From the UHGV virus genome UHGV-0370399: 64,000 nt of DNA; one strand, 5' to 3'. Made by a program: the position numbers and the translations under genes. Positions 11,580 to 14,631 of the stretch are shown here, in pieces (within the stretch, counting starts at the first letter, position 1; each line of letters starts with the position of its first letter). This stretch comes from a virus. The notes beneath the pieces were generated by a model, which saw nothing but the letters and a program-made list of their open reading frames with translations, ran no database searches and was not told the origin of the DNA.

Positions 11580-11656
11580 CTCTGTTTAGCTCAGCTTGGT
11601 AGAGCGTTCCGTTTGGGGCGGTAAGGCCGGAGGTTCAAGTCCTCCAACAGAGACCA
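11580..11656 (+). tRNA. tRNA-Pro (anticodon UGG), CCA encoded
   Basis: Hand-folded cloverleaf: acceptor CTCTGTT/AACAGAG, D-arm GCTCAGCTTGGTAGAGC, anticodon loop TTTGGGG, T-arm GGAGG-TTCAAGT-CCTCC. Confidence 0.8.
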
Positions 11657-11663
11657 AATTAAT

Positions 11664-11741
11664 GTTCCAGTAGACAAAATGGTAAAGTCACCACTCTTTC
11701 AAAGTGGATATCTGAGGGTTCAAATCCCTTCTGGAACGCCA
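11664..11741 (+). tRNA. tRNA-Glu (anticodon UUC), CCA encoded
   Basis: Acceptor GTTCCAG/CTGGAAC, anticodon stem CCACT/AGTGG with loop CTTTCAA, T-loop TTCAAAT. Confidence 0.75.
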
Positions 11742-11748
11742 GTTTTGA

Positions 11749-11820
11749 CAGAAGACCAATTACAGCAAACTTAATCTACTCATCTGACACGAAATCGGAC
11801 AAAGAAGATATTTGGTCTGG
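11749..11820 (+). ncRNA. Structured element A1 (CAGAAGACC ... GGTCTGG, closing stem AGACCA/TGGTCT); candidate small RNA
   Basis: One of four paralogous elements between tRNAs with conserved ends and covarying closing stem. Confidence 0.45.
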
Positions 11821-11831
11821 TCATTGAGAAT

Positions 11832-11908
11832 TGCGGGTATAGAGAAAGGGCGTCTCACATGTCTCATTAGCATGGTATCGGCAGGTTCGACTCCTGCACC
11901 CGCCTCCA
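11832..11908 (+). tRNA. tRNA-Met (anticodon CAU) with unpaired 1:72 position (initiator-like feature); CCA encoded
   Basis: Acceptor TGCGGGT/ACCCGCC (U1 x C72 mismatch), anticodon stem CATGT/GCATG with loop CTCATTA, T-arm GCAGG-TTCGACT-CCTGC. Confidence 0.6.
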
Positions 11909-11914
11909 ATTTTG

Positions 11915-11974
11915 CAGAAGACCGTATTCAGCAACAAAATACTTTTTGCGGATAAAAGAAAAAACACGGTCTGG
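11915..11974 (+). ncRNA. Structured element A2 (CAGAAGACC ... GGTCTGG, closing stem AGACCG/CGGTCT)
   Basis: Paralog of A1; closing-stem bases covary relative to A1. Confidence 0.45.
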
Positions 11975-11985
11975 CAATGTATTAA

Positions 11986-12062
11986 GGTTAGGAAGCACAT
12001 AAGGTATGTGCGGTCGCCTGTTAAGCGAATGGCACAGGGTTCGAATCCCTGACTAACCGCCA
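11986..12062 (+). tRNA. tRNA-Asn (anticodon GUU), CCA encoded
   Basis: Acceptor GGTTAGG/ACTAACC, anticodon loop CTGTTAA, T-arm CAGGG-TTCGAAT-CCCTG. Confidence 0.75.
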
Positions 12063-12071
12063 AATTTAAAT

Positions 12072-12159
12072 GTGTCGTTATCCCGTAGATGGTAGCGGTG
12101 GGGACTGTAAATCCCTTGTCATTGAGACTCGGTAGGTTCGACTCCTACACGGCACACCA
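12072..12159 (+). tRNA. tRNA-Tyr (anticodon GUA) with long variable arm, CCA encoded
   Basis: Acceptor GTGTCGT/ACGGCAC, anticodon stem GGGGA/TCCCT with loop CTGTAAA, 15-nt variable arm, T-arm GTAGG-TTCGACT-CCTAC. Confidence 0.7.
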
Positions 12160-12164
12160 ATAAA

Positions 12165-12242
12165 GGTTATGTAGTTTAATTTGGTTAAAATACTCCCCTG
12201 TCACGGGAGATGATGAGGGTTCAAATCCCTTCGTAACCGCCA
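12165..12242 (+). tRNA. tRNA-Asp (anticodon GUC), CCA encoded
   Basis: Acceptor GGTTATG/CGTAACC, anticodon stem CTCCC/GGGAG with loop CTGTCAC, T-loop TTCAAAT. Confidence 0.75.
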
Positions 12243-12303
12243 ATTTTGAGAGGGCTATTTAGCCCCTCCCTTAAAGGGTTCTTACGAGTATCCTTTAAAG
12301 GAG

Positions 12304-12376
12304 CAGAAGACCAAATACAGCAAGAACGTATGAAATTTCAAGCCAATTTAATTTTGAAAATTTAAACTTGGTCTGG
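12304..12376 (+). ncRNA. Structured element A3 (CAGAAGACC ... GGTCTGG, closing stem AGACCAA/TTGGTCT)
   Basis: Paralog of A1/A2 with covarying closing stem. Confidence 0.45.
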
Positions 12377-12389
12377 CTCAACAAATTTA

Positions 12390-12521
12390 CAGAAGACCGT
12401 TTACAGCAAAACTTAAACAATCTATTTCTCCGGTAAAGAAAAGGCGAAGGTTCGATTCCTTCACTCGGCAGATGTCGAGTTGGTGTAATGGTAGCACTTA
12501 AGATGATAAACAACGGTCTGG
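12390..12521 (+). ncRNA. Structured element A4 (closing stem AGACCGTT/AACGGTCT) enclosing a circularly permuted tRNA-like module; candidate Y-RNA-like (YrlA-like) RNA
   Basis: Inside the stem, in order: T-arm GAAGG-TTCGATT-CCTTC (12446-12462), acceptor-like hairpin ACTCGGC-AGAT-GTCGAGT (12463-12480), D-arm-like TGGTGTAATGGTAGCAC (12481-12497). Confidence 0.5.
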
Positions 12522-12522
12522 T

Positions 12523-12904: not shown

Positions 12905-12919
12905 ATTTCAATAAAGTTG

Positions 12920-12948
12920 TTGACATTGAGATGTGACTACTTTATAGT
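12920..12948 (+). promoter_or_regulatory. Candidate sigma70-like promoter inside the tRNA array (TTGACA, 17 bp, TATAGT)
   Basis: GTTGTTGACATTGAGATGTGACTACTTTATAGT read directly. Confidence 0.55.
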
Positions 12949-13179
12949 AACCTTAGTTTTCGTTGCGTAGCGTCTATTTTGCAAATTTAAAATAAATGCA
13001 AACGACAATGTTTTTCTGGCAGTAGCTTGATAGGCTAAACACCAGTGAGGTCTTCCAATCCCTCATCAAAGAATTTGGCGTACTCGCCCACGGTATGATT
13101 AATAATGTGGGCAACACTCTAAAGGGTATCCCTTATGGGTCTTGGCTTAAATGCAATAAGTACCCTTTAAAATGTTAAT

Positions 13180-13256
13180 GCACCCTTAGTTCAATTGGAT
13201 AGAGCAACGGTCTTCTAAATCGTTAGTTACAGGTTCGAATCCTGTAGGGTGTGCCA
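13180..13256 (+). tRNA. tRNA-Arg (anticodon UCU), CCA encoded
   Basis: Acceptor GCACCCT/AGGGTGT, D-arm GTTCAATTGGATAGAGC, anticodon stem ACGGT/ATCGT with loop CTTCTAA, T-arm ACAGG-TTCGAAT-CCTGT. Confidence 0.8.
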
Positions 13257-13399
13257 ATTTAGTTAGCAGATTGCTTAGACGACCTTATCGGGTCTCCGTG
13301 TAAGGAGGTGGTCTGTATCTCATGTTTTCCAGAACATGTAAATAATCTGAGAAGGTGCTTTACAGTGTTGAGATAATACGGTAAGCTTCGAATTATAGT

Positions 13400-13482
13400 G
13401 TGGGACGATGTTAAGACTCTAAGGCATGAGCAACGGCCTCCAAAACCGTTTCAAAGTGGTTCAACTCCTCCGTCCCATGCCA
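13400..13482 (+). tRNA. Atypical tRNA-like gene, possibly tRNA-Trp (anticodon CCA) with an enlarged D-region; may be a pseudo-tRNA
   Basis: Acceptor GTGGGAC/GTCCCAT plus GCCA end, T-loop TTCAACT, candidate anticodon loop CTCCAAA; D-region about 7 nt too long and T-stem imperfect. Confidence 0.35.
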
Positions 13483-13495
13483 AAGTCTTATTAGG

Positions 13496-13583
13496 GGTAG
13501 GTAGCGGCTAATGGTAGCCAAACTGTCTTGAAAACAGTTGCCACTGTAGAGATACGGTGAGGGTTCGACTCCTTTACTTACCG
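13496..13583 (+). tRNA. tRNA-Ser (anticodon UGA) with long variable arm; CCA not encoded
   Basis: Acceptor GGTAGGT/ACTTACC, anticodon stem ACTGT/ACAGT with loop CTTGAAA, long variable arm, T-arm GAGGG-TTCGACT-CCTTT. Confidence 0.7.
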
Positions 13584-13740
13584 CCTAATAAGATTTAAAG
13601 CCAAGCTTCATTCGGATGTTGCTTTGGTATCCCTCGTGTATTGTCGTACACGCACAGTAAAGCACCTAGTAGGTGTCACGGAGAAGAGATAATATCAAGC
13701 TCTCCAAAGGTTCTAGTCACCGGATTAAACAAGACTATGC

Positions 13741-13764
13741 AAAGACCTTTTTAGGTCTTTTTAG
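13741..13764 (+). terminator. Rho-independent terminator (AAAGACC-TTTTTA-GGTCTTT then T-run)
   Basis: 7-bp stem followed by TTTT, downstream of tRNA-Ser. Confidence 0.5.
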
Positions 13765-13854
13765 AGGGCTTCTAAGGTTATTACAGCTTGTTGTGGAACC
13801 TTGTTGCTTAGGTTCTTAGAAGTTCTCTAAAAAGATTTAATGGGAGATTGACAT

Positions 13855-14307
13855 ATGGCACGTAGCAGTTTGACTAAAGATATTCTTGAACCTTTAGTAA
13901 AGGGTTCAGTATCATTCAGAGAAGTGCTTATAAAGCTTGGGAGAAAACCATCAGGTGGTTCTCAGTCACATCTAAAGCGTGTTATAGAGAAGTTTGAAAT
14001 AGACACTTCTCATTTCCTCGGACAAAAGGCTGGTAAGATTAAAACTGTACCAAAAAGAAAGCCTGAAGAAATCTTAATTCTACGTGAATCTGGTGAAAGA
14101 GCAAGGTCTTCACAACTAAGAAGAGCTTTAATAGCATCTGGTATCGAATACAAATGCTCTAAATGCGGTCAGTTACCGGAGTGGTTGGGCAACCCTCTAA
14201 CTCTTGATGTTGACCACATTAATGAGAACTGGTTAGATGATAGAAAAGAGAATCTTCGGTTCTTATGTCCAAATTGCCACAGTCAATTCTCAAGGCATTT
14301 GATTTAA
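13855..14307 (+). CDS. HNH endonuclease (free-standing, homing-endonuclease-like) embedded in the tRNA array
   Basis: C-terminal motif CSKCGQ...DVDHINENWLDDRKENLRFLCPNCH (His-Asn-His with flanking Cys pairs); 150 aa. Confidence 0.7.
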   Translation: MARSSLTKDILEPLVKGSVSFREVLIKLGRKPSGGSQSHLKRVIEKFEIDTSHFLGQKAGKIKTVPKRKPEEILILRESGERARSSQLRRALIASGIEYKCSKCGQLPEWLGNPLTLDVDHINENWLDDRKENLRFLCPNCHSQFSRHLI

Positions 14308-14308
14308 T

Positions 14309-14385
14309 GCACCTATAGCCCAACTGGTAGAGGCAGCAGACTTAGAATCTGCTCAGTGTGAGTTCGAATCTCTCTAGGTGTACCA
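14309..14385 (+). tRNA. tRNA with anticodon UAG (decodes CUA/CUG Leu) but with a short variable arm; CCA encoded
   Basis: Acceptor GCACCTA/TAGGTGT, anticodon stem GCAGA/TCTGC with loop CTTAGAA, T-loop TTCGAAT; starts 2 nt after the HNH stop. Confidence 0.6.
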
Positions 14386-14392
14386 AATTAAT

Positions 14393-14468
14393 GCAGGTGT
14401 AGCAAAATGGTTATGCGGCTGACTCTTAATCAGTAAGACGATGGGTTCAATTCCCTCCACCTGTACCA
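14393..14468 (+). tRNA. tRNA-Lys (anticodon CUU), CCA encoded
   Basis: Acceptor GCAGGTG/CACCTGT, anticodon stem GCTGA/TCAGT with loop CTCTTAA, T-loop TTCAATT. Confidence 0.65.
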
Positions 14469-14474
14469 GACATT

Positions 14475-14550
14475 GGGGATGTAGTTTACATGGTTAAAAC
14501 ATAAGTTTTGCAAACTTAAGTACAGGGTTCAATTCCCTGCTTCTCCACCA
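14475..14550 (+). tRNA. tRNA-Ala (anticodon UGC), CCA encoded
   Basis: Acceptor GGGGATG/CTTCTCC (one U-U mismatch), anticodon stem TAAGT/ACTTA with loop TTTGCAA, T-arm CAGGG-TTCAATT-CCCTG. Confidence 0.65.
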
Positions 14551-14556
14551 ATTAGT

Positions 14557-14631
14557 GCATCCATAGTTTAAACGGGAAAATTACAGTCTTCCAAACTGAG
14601 GTTGAGGGTTCGAGTCCCTTCGGATTCTCCA
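14557..14631 (+). tRNA. tRNA-Gly (anticodon UCC), CCA encoded; acceptor stem has two mismatches
   Basis: Anticodon stem-loop ACAGT-CTTCCAA-ACTGA, T-arm GAGGG-TTCGAGT-CCCTT, acceptor GCATCCA/CGGATTC (5 of 7 pairs). Confidence 0.5.

Follow-up and report, generated by a model that had tools for sequence, protein, structure and literature searches.

Positions 11580 to 14631 hold the tRNA operon of an Ounavirinae phage of the Felix O1 type. We think it probable that this operon combines 15 recognised tRNAs and a non-canonical tRNA-Trp with four interleaved Y-RNA-like elements, E1-E4, that are partnered by a Ro60-like protein. "The window" refers throughout to the whole 64,000-nucleotide stretch of the virus genome UHGV-0370399 that was analyzed. 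Because the window comes from a Felix O1-like phage, the tRNA array itself is already known; the phage identity is supported together with the synteny of the array in relatives. Among phages the array region is plastic, with HNH insertions and gains and losses of tRNAs.

A sequence-only reading had described the interval as a clustered phage array of 16 tRNAs with atypical members, and this description stands: ARAGORN called 15 of the 16 genes, with identical coordinates and anticodons, 13 genes of the array reached the gathering score of the Rfam tRNA model, and the sixteenth gene is supported by comparative evidence. ARAGORN called no tRNA beyond these 15 in the whole 64-kb window. The genes are:

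11580-11656, + strand, tRNA-Pro(UGG), encoded CCA (ARAGORN; Rfam 57.7 bits; fold and 3' end)
11664-11741, + strand, tRNA-Glu(UUC), encoded CCA (ARAGORN; Rfam 60.4 bits; fold and 3' end)
11832-11908, + strand, atypical tRNA(CAU), encoded CCA, U37 (ARAGORN)
11986-12062, + strand, tRNA-Asn(GUU) (ARAGORN; Rfam)
12072-12159, + strand, tRNA-Tyr(GUA) (ARAGORN; below the Rfam tRNA gathering score)
12165-12242, + strand, tRNA-Asp(GUC) (ARAGORN; Rfam)
12671-12746, + strand, tRNA-Lys(UUU) (ARAGORN; Rfam 54.4 bits)
12751-12827, + strand, tRNA(CAU), elongator Met or Ile2 (ARAGORN; Rfam 54.3 bits)
12829-12904, + strand, tRNA-Ile(GAU) (ARAGORN; Rfam 62.3 bits)
13180-13256, + strand, tRNA-Arg(UCU), carried by some relatives but not by others (ARAGORN; Rfam)
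13400-13482, + strand, atypical tRNA-Trp-like gene, anticodon CCA, G73, encoded CCA (comparative evidence)
13496-13585, + strand, tRNA-Ser(UGA), long variable arm, CCU not CCA (ARAGORN; Rfam 33.2 bits)
14309-14385, + strand, tRNA-Leu(UAG) (ARAGORN; Rfam; 3' end)
14393-14468, + strand, tRNA-Lys(CUU) (ARAGORN; Rfam; 3' end)
14475-14550, + strand, tRNA-Ala(UGC) (ARAGORN; Rfam; 3' end)
14557-14631, + strand, tRNA-Gly(UCC) (ARAGORN; Rfam; 3' end)

An encoded CCA, claimed for most genes, was found in 14 of the 15 called tRNAs and in the Trp-like gene, the exception being tRNA-Ser, whose 3' end is CCU. The claimed spacing of 2-10 nt is right within sub-clusters, where it measures 1-9 nt; the sub-clusters themselves are 77-723 nt apart. 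The gaps of 77-428 nt are more than the spacers they had been taken for: four conserved Y-RNA-like genes lie in them, together with a fifth structured RNA.

The mismatches reported earlier are real when read from the sequence. A49.C65 and U50.U64 occur in the T stems of both tRNA-Lys genes, C2.U71 and A7.C66 in tRNA-Gly, and U1.C72 in the first tRNA(CAU) (11832-11908), for which the Rfam search gave no match at all. This gene has an initiator-like acceptor end, the 1:72 mismatch being followed by G2-C71 and C3-G70; in relatives 1:72 stays mismatched as the bases change (U.C, C.C or A.A), and the T stem covaries. Rfam matched tRNA-Tyr only as tRNA-Sec (29.6 bits), and its counterpart in the AYO145A record is labelled "tRNA-Pseudo-GTA". 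Of the two words offered for such genes, degenerate or specialised, the second is the better for the key atypical members, because the Trp-like gene is under purifying selection for its structure and alternates with a different tRNA-Trp in relatives, and the 1:72 mismatch of the tRNA(CAU) is conserved through base changes.

The Trp-like gene is a conserved non-canonical tRNA-Trp that standard tools miss. ARAGORN did not call it, Rfam gave it only 21 bits (E = 0.69), and none of 40 records sampled has a tRNA annotated at the locus. Its anticodon loop is CUCCAAA, and a connector of 9 nt (GAUGUUAAG), versus 2 nt in tRNAs, joins the acceptor to the D stem. It has been conserved across 234 phage records that extend as far as Yersinia phage P778. 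The CCA anticodon, G73, the encoded CCA and the 9-nt connector are invariant, mismatches 31.39 and 49.65 are conserved, and a T.T in the T stem is a recent derived change in the window's own copy. Seven pairs of the cloverleaf have changed on both sides, versus none in slid controls, a sign of purifying selection on structure. We consider it unlikely that the gene is a non-working tRNA, a pseudogene left by the decay of a paralog of tRNA-Arg(UCU). Both tRNA finders rejected it, its identity to tRNA-Arg is 71% over 42 nt (repeat family D10), and the long connector, the mismatches in three stems and the extra T.T would fit decay. Such decay is nonetheless difficult to square with the invariant features and compensated pairs across so many records. 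Also, the two loci that lack the gene (L003 and L005) have a callable tRNA-Trp in the same interval, the two being mutually exclusive, and arrays of up to 26 tRNAs contain no other Trp tRNA.

The elements E1-E4, unannotated candidate small RNAs in the spacers between tRNAs at 11746-12524, follow the gene for the Ro60-like protein:

9999-11414, + strand, Ro60-like ring protein gene, 471 aa (Pfam DUF2828 and DUF7788/vWA; PHROG 850)
11746-11823, + strand, E1, short Y-RNA-like (fold; repeat family D7; position conserved in relatives)
11912-11977, + strand, E2, short Y-RNA-like, outer stem UUGC/GCAA (fold; position conserved in relatives)
12301-12379, + strand, E3, short Y-RNA-like, outer stem GAGC/GCUC (fold; position conserved in relatives)
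12387-12524, + strand, E4, long YrlA-like (sequence; fold; permuted-module scan; covariation)

All four share one architecture: the 5' and 3' ends form a covarying basal helix, whose pairs from the base are A-U, G-C and R-Y and whose 3' strand is followed by a G; each also has an AGA/G internal loop and, after the helix, a CAGCAA box that stays single-stranded. The outer stems differ with pairing always kept (UGAC/GUCA, UUGC/GCAA, GAGC/GCUC, UUAC/GUAA); E1, for example, has the outer stem UGAC/GUCA, the internal loop, the stem AGACCAA/UUGGUCU and the box. The apical part is short and A/U-rich in E1-E3, where it resembles YrlB, and is a tRNA mimic in E4, where it resembles YrlA. E4 has a basal stem (AGACCGUU/AACGGUCU), the CAGCAA box and a V region. 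Next come a T arm (GAAGG-UUCGAUU-CCUUC), a 7-bp acceptor-like hairpin (ACUCGGC-AGAU-GUCGAGU) and a D arm (GUGU-AAUGGUA-GCAC), permuted in the same way as in the YrlA Y RNAs of bacteria. YrlA has been defined by the order V-T-AS-D on the same strand as, and less than 4 kb from, Ro60 (PMC4201824). The YrlA 5' motif GNCGAAN0-1G is absent here; CAGAAG stands instead, and the conserved box, CAGCAA, is different. The window's E4 had no YrlA match in Rfam even at E ≤ 10, and distant members gave significant sub-threshold YrlA matches of 39.2, 38.9 and 36.7 bits (E 4 × 10-5 to 2 × 10-4). No RNA is annotated at the E4 spot in any of 40 records sampled among 248 matching. One false positive of the dimeric-tRNA kind was met, at L066.

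The positions of E1-E4 are conserved in 27 related loci and stem switches are compensated; E2, for example, changes from UUGC/GCAA to UUAC/GUAA. The acceptor-like hairpin of E4 exists in three different compensated versions within the Ounavirinae and is rewritten again in each distant lineage, with pairing always intact. Pairing in E4 is 96.7%, a figure inflated because the alignment was fitted to the model, versus 63% in shuffled and 29-42% in slid alignments, and double-sided changes were seen at 24 of the 25 pairs. A covariance model (R1) built from only six Ounavirinae sequences yielded 51 matches, every one on the gene strand; they include E1 (42.0 bits, E = 2.6 × 10-7), E2 (39.2 bits, E = 9.8 × 10-7) and, with filters off, E3 (28.5 bits, E = 1.6 × 10-4). 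Its matches in distant loci include some with E = 4.5 × 10-10, 3 × 10-8 and 1 × 10-6, and only 1 of 33 distant matches overlaps a tRNA. A strict signature of sequence plus pairing, scanned in 80 distant phage loci carrying the Ro60-like gene, was found 63 times on the same strand, compared with twice on the opposite one and twice in shuffled sequence. It was present in only 42 of the 80 loci, and 46 of the 63 occurrences lie within 500 nt of the gene (24 upstream, 22 downstream).

The Ro60-like gene lies on the same strand, 330 nt upstream of the elements, with the array directly downstream. Its product matches PHROG 850, "RNA-binding protein" (E = 6 × 10-183), and carries an invariant MIDAS DxSxS motif. 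At the sequence level the protein matched nothing in the PDB, solved Ro60 structures included, and the Pfam search did not place it in TROVE. Structural modelling indicates that the gene encodes a protein with the Ro60 fold: the top 11 Foldseek matches of the AF2 model (pLDDT 87, pTM 0.87) to the PDB were all Ro60/TROVE (E 3 × 10-7 to 6 × 10-6, TM 0.48-0.62). The protein is a homolog of Bas63 gp130, an ortholog reported to resemble Ro60 and to counter the Ppl defence, and near which Y RNAs were speculated (preprint, PMC11482910).

The best reading of E1-E4 is that of a divergent and unannotated family of Y RNAs that has the Ro-like protein as its partner. We consider it rather improbable that they are instead cis-acting transcript parts and not free partners, whether as processing or stability stems of the tRNA operon or as operator-like UTR sites through which the Ro-like protein would regulate its own mRNA. 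E1 and E2 are placed only 4-8 nt from flanking tRNAs, distant elements close upstream and downstream of the gene occupy expected UTR positions, and the neighbouring 24-bp stem at 12523-12666 resembles a processing site. However, the elements are kept beside the gene in 20 loci without a tRNA within 5 kb, and are therefore not features of tRNA operons; a locus may carry four or more copies, some 1-3 kb from the gene; and an operator function would scarcely account for a complete T-acceptor-D tRNA mimic. The operon promoter matches and a terminator-like hairpin separate the stop codon of the gene from E1 in the window.

Another reading, disfavoured and very improbable, has E4 as the decayed remnant of tandem tRNAs (a 3' half plus the next 5' half) and E1-E3 as non-functional repeats left by recombination or homing endonucleases. 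Dimeric tRNAs can mimic YrlA (Chen et al.), as the false positive above illustrates, the plasticity of the region would suit such debris, and a tandem-tRNA origin of the E4 module is plausible. Yet the hairpin that separates the T arm from the D arm shows perfect complementarity, with compensation in every lineage, the observed level of pairing would not survive decay, the basal helix and box remain conserved at protein identities as low as 39%, and the covariance model has no opposite-strand matches. Several GenBank records, Bas63 and AYO145A among them, annotate hypothetical CDSs over the E3-E4 interval, and a minus-strand ORF of 107 aa spans 12295-12618 in the window. That the interval consists of minus-strand small-protein genes is nonetheless extremely improbable: the ORFs vary among close relatives (107 aa; 85 aa; 50 and 36 aa; none in Michonne), E4 lengths, between 129 and 138 nt, differ by amounts not divisible by three, and substitutions are compensatory for RNA helices.

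Candidate signals and other features in and around the array are:

11433-11461, + strand, sigma70-like promoter match TTGACA-17-TAATAT, upstream of tRNA-Pro (consensus scan)
11524-11553, + strand, sigma70-like promoter match TTGACA-18-TAAAGT with TG, upstream of tRNA-Pro (consensus scan)
12523-12666, + strand, fifth structured RNA, 144-nt hairpin with a 24-bp closing stem (inverted repeat I2)
12920-12948, + strand, best sigma70-like promoter match in the array, TTGACA-17-TATAGT, 11/12 (consensus only)
13741-13763, + strand, internal terminator-like hairpin AAAGACC-UUUUU-AGGUCUUU, then a U run (sequence, fold)
13855-14307, + strand, HNH homing-endonuclease ORF, 150 aa, abutting tRNA-Leu (Pfam HNH; PHROG 10822, E = 4 × 10-66)
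14669-14728, + strand, terminator-like hairpin and U run after tRNA-Gly, -25.4 kcal/mol (scan, fold)
14794-14817, + strand, terminator-like hairpin and U run after tRNA-Gly (scan, fold)

At least three sigma70-like promoters had been proposed, and at the consensus level three sites (11433, 11524 and 12920) do have a perfect TTGACA; the 11 promoter-like sites found are not a clear excess over the 6.9 ± 2.6 in shuffles. The tandem matches at 11433 and 11524 have a common A/T-rich upstream repeat (family D12). The two closing terminators proposed are present as consensus matches, hairpins with T runs, with a third inside the array, and Michonne has two terminators annotated at the analogous spot. 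A further "terminator" in the scan output corresponds to part of tRNA-Gly itself, namely its T arm and acceptor end. Michonne also has the HNH ORF that abuts tRNA-Leu; Bas63 has none at that spot. The fifth structured RNA (z-score -6.2) has an internal hairpin with the loop UUAAGCAA and is conserved, with 6 compensated pairs across two clades; it may serve as an RNase III-type processing stem or be a different kind of ncRNA.

The array would be transcribed rightward from its own sigma70-type promoters, and host enzymes (RNase P and 3' trimming) would cut the transcripts into individual RNAs. The tRNAs may top up decoding of codons commoner in the phage than in the host; the codon-usage comparison favours this role modestly, AGA being 4.8 times commoner in phage ORFs than in E. 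coli. They may also replace host tRNAs destroyed by defence nucleases. E1 and E2 occupy nearly the whole of the gaps in which they lie, and maturation of the tRNAs on either side would therefore free them as separate RNAs of roughly 65-80 nt. The Ro60-like ring protein is the likeliest partner of E1-E4. If the analogy with Ro60-Y RNA particles holds, the ring would be the docking site of the helix and CAGCAA box, leaving the apical module to tether or gate a further factor; in the case of E4 this would be a factor that recognises tRNA shape.

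The segment at 11300-14900 matches 331 phage records. Nearest, at 94-97% identity, are Salmonella and Escherichia phages of the Felix O1-like group (Felixounavirus); Mooglevirus phages, for example Citrobacter phage Michonne, match it at about 87%. The gene order in annotated relatives is an "RNA-binding protein / DUF2828 / vWFA protein" gene, a same-strand tRNA array and then terminase. The tRNA array itself is ordinary for Felix O1-type phages and was already known. Above all, the analysis adds four Y-RNA-like genes without annotation, including one tRNA mimic, that are linked to a Ro60-fold protein in many phages.

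The tRNA genes are spaced 1-9 nt apart within sub-clusters, and 77-723 nt separate the sub-clusters. The larger spacers have contents that the sequence-only reading missed: four Y-RNA-like elements, E1 to E4, lie in them, together with a further hairpin.

11746-11823, plus strand: E1, filling one gap beside the first CAU tRNA and lying 4-8 nt from the flanking tRNAs
11912-11977, plus strand: E2, filling the other gap beside the first CAU tRNA and lying 4-8 nt from the flanking tRNAs
12301-12379, plus strand: E3, between tRNA-Asp and tRNA-Lys
12387-12524, plus strand: E4, between tRNA-Asp and tRNA-Lys
12523-12666, plus strand: 144-nt hairpin with a 24-bp closing stem (z-score -6.2), filling the gap between E4 and tRNA-Lys

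E1-E4 are located 332-1110 nt downstream of the Ro-like gene (the DUF2828 ORF at 9999-11414, plus strand) and on the same strand. When the sequence was read directly, the four were seen to be bracketed by CAGAAGACC...GGUCUGG, and a repeat finder reported four copies of the 5' arm as its family D7. Each element folds with its 5' and 3' ends paired. The outer 4-bp stem differs in every copy and yet pairs in all of them (UGAC/GUCA, UUGC/GCAA, GAGC/GCUC and UUAC/GUAA); it is followed by a fixed AGA/G internal loop, an inner stem of the form AGACCnn/nnGGUCU and a single-stranded (U)ACAGCAA. The long element, E4, carries a T arm (GAAGG-UUCGAUU-CCUUC), a 7-bp hairpin (ACUCGGC-AGAU-GUCGAGU) whose loop in the Mooglevirus version is GCCAAACA, and a D arm (GUGU-AAUGGUA-GCAC). 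E4 thus has the body of a tRNA in which the acceptor stem is closed by a loop and an open-ended basal helix stands in place of the anticodon stem.

None of 40 records sampled from the 248 that match E4 annotates an RNA feature there, and several relatives' records place minus-strand hypothetical CDSs over it. These ORFs are probably spurious, because their lengths vary among close relatives and the steps in E4 length are not multiples of three. In the window, a 107-aa minus-strand ORF (12295-12618) overlaps E3, E4 and the 144-nt hairpin. The stem of that hairpin and the loop of its internal hairpin, U(U/A)AGCAA, are conserved, with six compensated pairs from only two Ounavirinae clades; possible identities of this RNA are an RNase III-type processing stem and a fifth ncRNA. 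Its loop echoes the CAGCAA box of the elements. Directly 3' of tRNA-Asp are two adjacent hairpins (12243-12300), GAGAGGGCU-AUUU-AGCCCCUC and UUAAAGGGUUC...GUAUCCUUUAAAG, neither of which is followed by a U run.

The protein encoded upstream of the elements matches DUF2828, DUF7788 and, weakly, VWA_2 in Pfam, and PHROG 850, "RNA-binding protein". Searches of it found no Pfam TROVE domain and no NCBIfam match, and neither a single-sequence nor a profile search of the PDB found similarity to a solved structure. An AlphaFold2 model built from 38 homologs (pLDDT 87, pTM 0.87) was compared with the PDB by Foldseek. The best 11 matches were all full-length Ro60/TROVE proteins (E 3e-7 to 6e-6, TM 0.48-0.62) from Thermus phage phiLo, Xenopus, Deinococcus and human, and the next were isolated vWA domains. 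The MIDAS DxSxS motif is invariant in the family. At the level of the fold, the model predicts a Ro60 protein, a ring of helical repeats followed by a vWA domain with MIDAS. The PhageMaP preprint states that the homolog Bas63 gp130 resembles Ro60 and counters host defence (PMC11482910), and our structural result is an independent reproduction of the resemblance. As to RNA partners, the preprint only guessed that "some tRNA genes" may be Y RNAs (PMC11482910). The ORF directly 5' of the Ro-like gene (9545-9916) belongs to DUF5681 / PHROG 4114 and has the same position in Michonne and Bas63.

In each of the 27 Ounavirinae loci retrieved by way of the protein, the elements occupy the same positions; switches such as that of E2 from UUGC/GCAA to UUAC/GUAA are compensated. 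The acceptor-like hairpin of E4 occurs there in three compensated versions (ACUCGGC/GUCGAGU, ACACGU/GCGUGU and ACCCUUC/GAAGGGU). We extended the comparison to 80 distant IMG/VR loci, in which the Ro-like protein is 29-48% identical. When these were scanned for a T arm, a complementary hairpin and a D arm together, at least 9 distant lineages proved to have such modules, uncalled, next to the gene. At least 10 distant modules share the V/T/acceptor/D layout, and in each the basal stem is followed by a (U)UYCAGCAA or CCGCAA box. The only false positive of the scan was a "permuted" match at position 2017 of locus L066, which proved to be two adjacent real tRNAs; tandem units in L059 were excluded as unclear.

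Several counts describe how closely this RNA signature follows the gene. A strict version (AGR-N4, 1-4 nt, C[AC]GCA[AG], then within 200 nt a perfect 7-bp complement plus G) occurs in the 80 distant loci 63 times on the gene strand, versus 2 times on the opposite strand and 2 times in shuffled sequence, and 46 of the 63 matches lie no more than 500 nt from the Ro-like gene. A covariance model made only from six well-aligned Ounavirinae E4 sequences gave 51 matches in 936 kb, all on the gene strand, with E values in distant loci of 4.5e-10, 3e-8 and 1e-6. Among the 33 matches in distant loci, a single one overlaps a called tRNA, and for 20 the distance to the gene is at most 600 nt. With filters off, the same model found E1 (42.0 bits), E2 (39.2 bits) and E3 (28.5 bits) in the window and nothing on the window's minus strand. 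The proportion of paired cells in the model-fitted alignment, 96.7%, is inflated by the fit and compares with 63% for shuffled sequences and 29-42% for slid partners; changes on both sides are seen in 24 of 25 pairs. The pair counts leave out a MAFFT alignment of 17 long forms, in which the variable acceptor hairpins came out scrambled. The base of the basal helix is nearly invariant, being A-U in 41 of 48 sequences and then G-C in 47 of 48. The strand asymmetry and the shuffle controls are independent of the model fit.

The Ro-like gene is often found within tRNA arrays: in 30 of the 80 distant loci, tRNAs on its strand lie no more than 5 kb away (178 on the gene strand and 1 on the opposite strand). 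The element is also present in 20 loci that have no tRNA in the vicinity, where it adjoins the gene in almost every case, and it thus tracks the gene for the Ro-like protein. Two distant DUF2828 loci carry other RNA features: L053 has a group I intron (10696-10922; Rfam 71.5 bits), and L110 has a putative suppressor tRNA whose anticodon, UUA, corresponds to a stop codon (3231-3307). The acceptor-like hairpin has a loop beginning with N-CCA (discriminator plus CCA) in four of 14 lineages, for which the probability by chance is about 5e-5. Hairpins of this kind are found at the following places in the comparison loci.

L001, 4220-4245: N-CCA hairpin loop
L073, 6580-6600: N-CCA hairpin loop
L108, 6860-6885: N-CCA hairpin loop
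L108, 9544-9565: N-CCA hairpin loop

The closest known RNAs are the bacterial Y RNAs, among which YrlA is characterised by binding to Ro60 and by modifications of the tRNA type (pseudouridine 55 and dihydrouridine). In YrlA a V region, a T arm, an acceptor-like stem-loop and a D arm follow one another inside a stem made by pairing of the two RNA ends (Chen et al. 2014, PMC4201824). E4 has this layout, with a closed acceptor stem-loop, and its tRNA-like domain has the tRNA invariants U8, A14, G18G19, A21, GUUCRA and C61. The elements without a tRNA-like domain, E1-E3, resemble YrlB. As with YrlA/YrlB and Rsr in Salmonella Typhimurium, Mycobacterium smegmatis and mycobacteriophages, there are several RNAs per locus with a stem of the 5' and 3' ends (PMC4201824), and all four elements are within 4 kb of a Ro60-fold gene on its strand. 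The 7-bp acceptor stem of E4 matches that of M. smegmatis YrlA, which is cut by RNase P and then receives CCA (Chen et al. 2014, PMC4201824). Differences are also evident. The YrlA motif GNCGAAN0-1G, the proposed Ro60 contact, is absent, and a 5' strand (N)CAGAAGACC with a CAGCAA box 3' of the stem is found instead; what is conserved here is this box and an A-U/G-C/R-Y helix base. The putative partner protein is of the DUF2828 type and not Pfam TROVE, and the RNA genes are inside a tRNA operon. The YrlA model RF02553 found no match to E4 of the window at E<=10; its scores on distant members (39.2, 38.9, 36.7, 28.7 and 24.7 bits) are significant and below the gathering score of 69. We therefore file the family as a variant and not as a member of YrlA, on the strength of the Rfam gathering score and the missing GNCGAAN0-1G motif; it is probably related to YrlA/YrlB and would work like them. 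At gathering threshold, Rfam returned only tRNAs in the window and the distant loci. Weak matches to Dictyostelium class I RNA (E2), tmRNA_permuted (12846-13030), plastid UTR models and miRNAs were sub-threshold, and are taken to be due to chance or driven by tRNA arms.

Two other systems invite comparison. Thermus phage phiLo also has a phage Ro60-fold protein with adjacent Y-like RNAs, its Ro60 is the top structural match (PDB 9KOP, 9L5Y), and a stem-bulge-stem layout is reported for its Yrl1 and Yrl2 (PMC12135203). The phiLo RNAs are upstream of the gene and are chosen by a CGAA motif (PMC12135203); protein identity in the structural alignment is 16%, and a tRNA-array context is not described for phiLo. 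In E4 the T arm and the 3' strand of the acceptor, which make up the 3' half, come ahead of the 5' half with its acceptor strand and D arm, an order that is also that of the circularly permuted tRNA genes of Cyanidioschyzon merolae. However, E4 has no anticodon loop, and where the anticodon stem would be is the open-ended basal helix with a signature of the protein-binding type. Its topology is that of a Y RNA, and not of a tRNA that is circularised and re-cut. Phage Y RNAs were already known from mycobacteriophages, CcrColossus, Bacillus phage G and Thermus phage phiLo (PMC4201824, PMC12135203). For DUF2828, Felix O1/Felixounavirus or Bas63, the PhageMaP speculation was the only prior account of Y RNAs found in full-text literature, whose coverage is incomplete, so that an earlier mention is possible.

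ARAGORN called 15 tRNA genes, all on the plus strand and with the coordinates and anticodons assigned in the sequence-only reading, and none elsewhere in the 64-kb window. The count of 16 in that reading included a Trp-like gene that both ARAGORN and Rfam reject. All 15 called tRNAs fold as cloverleaves. They also have the anticodon loop of 7 nt with U33, the assignable anticodon and the 3' discriminator of canonical tRNAs. CCA is encoded by 14 of them and by the Trp-like gene, in agreement with the earlier statement that most do so, and tRNA-Ser ends in CCU; the mismatches pointed out earlier for the two Lys genes, for Gly and for position 1:72 of the first CAU tRNA do occur in the sequence. 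The Rfam model RF00005 recovered 13 of the 16 genes at gathering score. At a permissive threshold Tyr matched only tRNA-Sec (29.6 bits), and the first CAU tRNA (11832-11908) had no Rfam match at all, probably owing to an extra nucleotide 5' of the D stem. The atypical nature of the array tRNAs is also visible in the annotation of others: the AYO145A record labels Tyr(GTA), Leu(TAG) and His(GTG) "tRNA-Pseudo" and omits several other tRNAs.

Position 1:72 of the first CAU tRNA stays mismatched in relatives as its bases change (U.C, C.C and, in Yersinia, A.A), while G2-C71 and C3-G70 are fixed, the T stem covaries and U37 is invariant. The kept mismatch and the two fixed pairs make its acceptor end initiator-like; in E. 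coli the 1:72 mismatch, G2-C71 and C3-G70 are the determinants of formylation. It shares these three features with bacterial initiator tRNA-fMet and differs from it in having U37 and U73 and in lacking the three consecutive G-C pairs by the anticodon loop (CAUGU/GCAUG). This initiator-like tRNA is among the things added to the known array. The second CAU tRNA (12751-12827) could be an elongator Met or a lysidine-modified Ile2; AUA is rare in phage ORFs (2.7 per 1000 codons).

The Trp-like gene (13400-13482, plus strand) is present in 234 phage records, and none of 40 sampled from these annotates a tRNA at it. Ten distinct versions were compared, including that of Yersinia phage P778, in which the neighbouring protein has an identity of only 54%. 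The anticodon loop CUCCAAA with anticodon CCA, G73, the CCA encoded at the 3' end and, linking the acceptor and D stems, a connector of 9 nt, GAUGUUAAG, are invariant. All four stems change in compensated fashion: CUC/GAG becomes CAC/GUG in the D stem, ACGG/CCGU becomes UAAG/CUUA or UAGG/CCUA in the anticodon stem, pair 59-73 of the T stem goes from G-C to U-A, and the acceptor stem varies likewise. Seven pairs of the cloverleaf show double-sided changes versus none in six slid controls. The identity set of E. coli TrpRS consists of anticodon CCA, G73 and the A1-U72 pair. The gene carries this set, with A1-U72 in six of the ten sequences and G1.U72 in the window. It has neither the standard 2-nt connector (8-9) nor fully paired D, anticodon and T stems, three mismatches being conserved (the first D-stem pair, 31.39 and 49.65). 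A T.T mismatch noticed earlier is a derived change limited to the window plus two near-identical loci.

Beside the Trp-like gene, no second Trp tRNA is present in arrays that have as many as 26 genes. In two loci, L003 and L005, the gene is absent, and a 71-nt tRNA-Trp(CCA) called by ARAGORN lies within the same Ile-Ser interval; in these Felixounavirus contigs the short tRNA (9388-9458 and 9394-9464) replaces both Arg(UCU) and the Trp-like gene. The simplest reading of these sequence comparisons is that the gene would encode a working but structurally unusual tRNA-Trp. Since it is invisible to ARAGORN and Rfam, tRNA counts for Felix O1-type phages are systematically short. Nested inverted repeats at 13285-13367 and 13653-13692 (15-16 nt, 81-93% complementary) flank the Trp-like and Ser pair; co-folding in relatives found no consistent long-range helix between them.

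Relatives have 21-26 tRNAs in the array, versus 15 callable in the window, where the array ends after tRNA-Gly and the distal Thr-to-Cys block is missing, as it is in L002. This makes the array in the window a short version of the Felix O1-type array. The absent block, present in most relatives, comprises 10-11 tRNAs (Thr, Val, Leu, Arg, Gln, Leu, Gln, His, Phe, Ser and Cys; window 14631-14830 compared with L001 6595-8541). Downstream of the Ro-like gene of Yersinia phage vB_YenM_P778 (L115, PP693300.1), ARAGORN called 26 tRNAs (1942-7460); the GenBank record annotates none of them and has many small hypothetical CDSs over the array instead. One ORF interrupts the array of the window.

13855-14307, plus strand: HNH homing-endonuclease ORF, ending one base 5' of tRNA-Leu

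This ORF is found at the same spot in Michonne and not in Bas63, which marks it as a mobile insertion. Interruption by homing endonuclease ORFs is shared with the large-phage arrays of T4, T5 and Bas63, as are same-strand clusters of 15-26 tRNAs a few nucleotides apart, encoded CCA, and anticodons that fit codons overused by the phage. The T4 tRNA cluster also yields two small stable non-tRNA RNAs, species 1 and 2. A perfect TTGACA occurs at three promoter-like sites (11433, 11524 and 12920), and the regional total of such sites is not clearly above that of shuffled sequence. Common to the three best (11413-11440, 11504-11531 and 12912-12930) are the context GTT(C/G)TTGACA(A/T)T and a block rich in A/T, suggesting that these are related early promoters of one family. 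Hairpins that fold well and precede a U run, as in terminators, are found after tRNA-Gly (two good ones) and within the array (13741-13763).

Codons matched by the phage tRNAs have a median phage to E. coli ratio of 1.24, versus 0.85 for other codons (one-sided P = 0.013), a soft result for the 40 long ORFs of the window set against an E. coli codon table. The highest ratios are those of AGA (4.8x), AAG (2.7x) and UCA (2.2x). Equally current is the explanation, cited in PMC11482910, that phage tRNAs replace host tRNAs cut by defence nucleases.

A possible, though doubtful, reading of the whole is that DUF2828-type Ro-like proteins and CAGCAA-box Y-like RNAs form a widespread, undescribed phage RNP, often in tRNA operons, that manages a tRNA-related conflict with the host, with E4-type RNAs opened by RNase P and then acting as decoy or adaptor. 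Cleavage of the tRNA mimic by RNase P would expose a CCA end, leaving two halves, one ending in ...ACUCGGCA(CCA) and the other starting with pGUCGAGU. The N-CCA loops look as if an acceptor end were exposed after cleavage, which we infer for these phages by analogy. The opened RNA might then act on tRNA-targeting defence enzymes or on repair factors, as their decoy or adaptor. If true, the RNP reading would explain how Bas63 gp130 counters host defence.

Relative to the public annotation sampled, a Y-RNA-like family linked to a Ro60-fold protein across many phages and a conserved tRNA-Trp invisible to the tools are new. Genome records put probably spurious minus-strand "hypothetical proteins" over these RNAs. 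The Trp-like gene, with its 9-nt insertion, is a natural test case for the structural tolerance of tRNA. The Y-RNA-like genes provide concrete, testable candidate RNA partners for a Ro60-like phage protein linked to anti-defence. The presence of the RNA signature beside the DUF2828 protein in many unrelated phages would extend Ro60-Y RNA biology to a large protein family (more than 2,800 sequences) which is not classed as TROVE.
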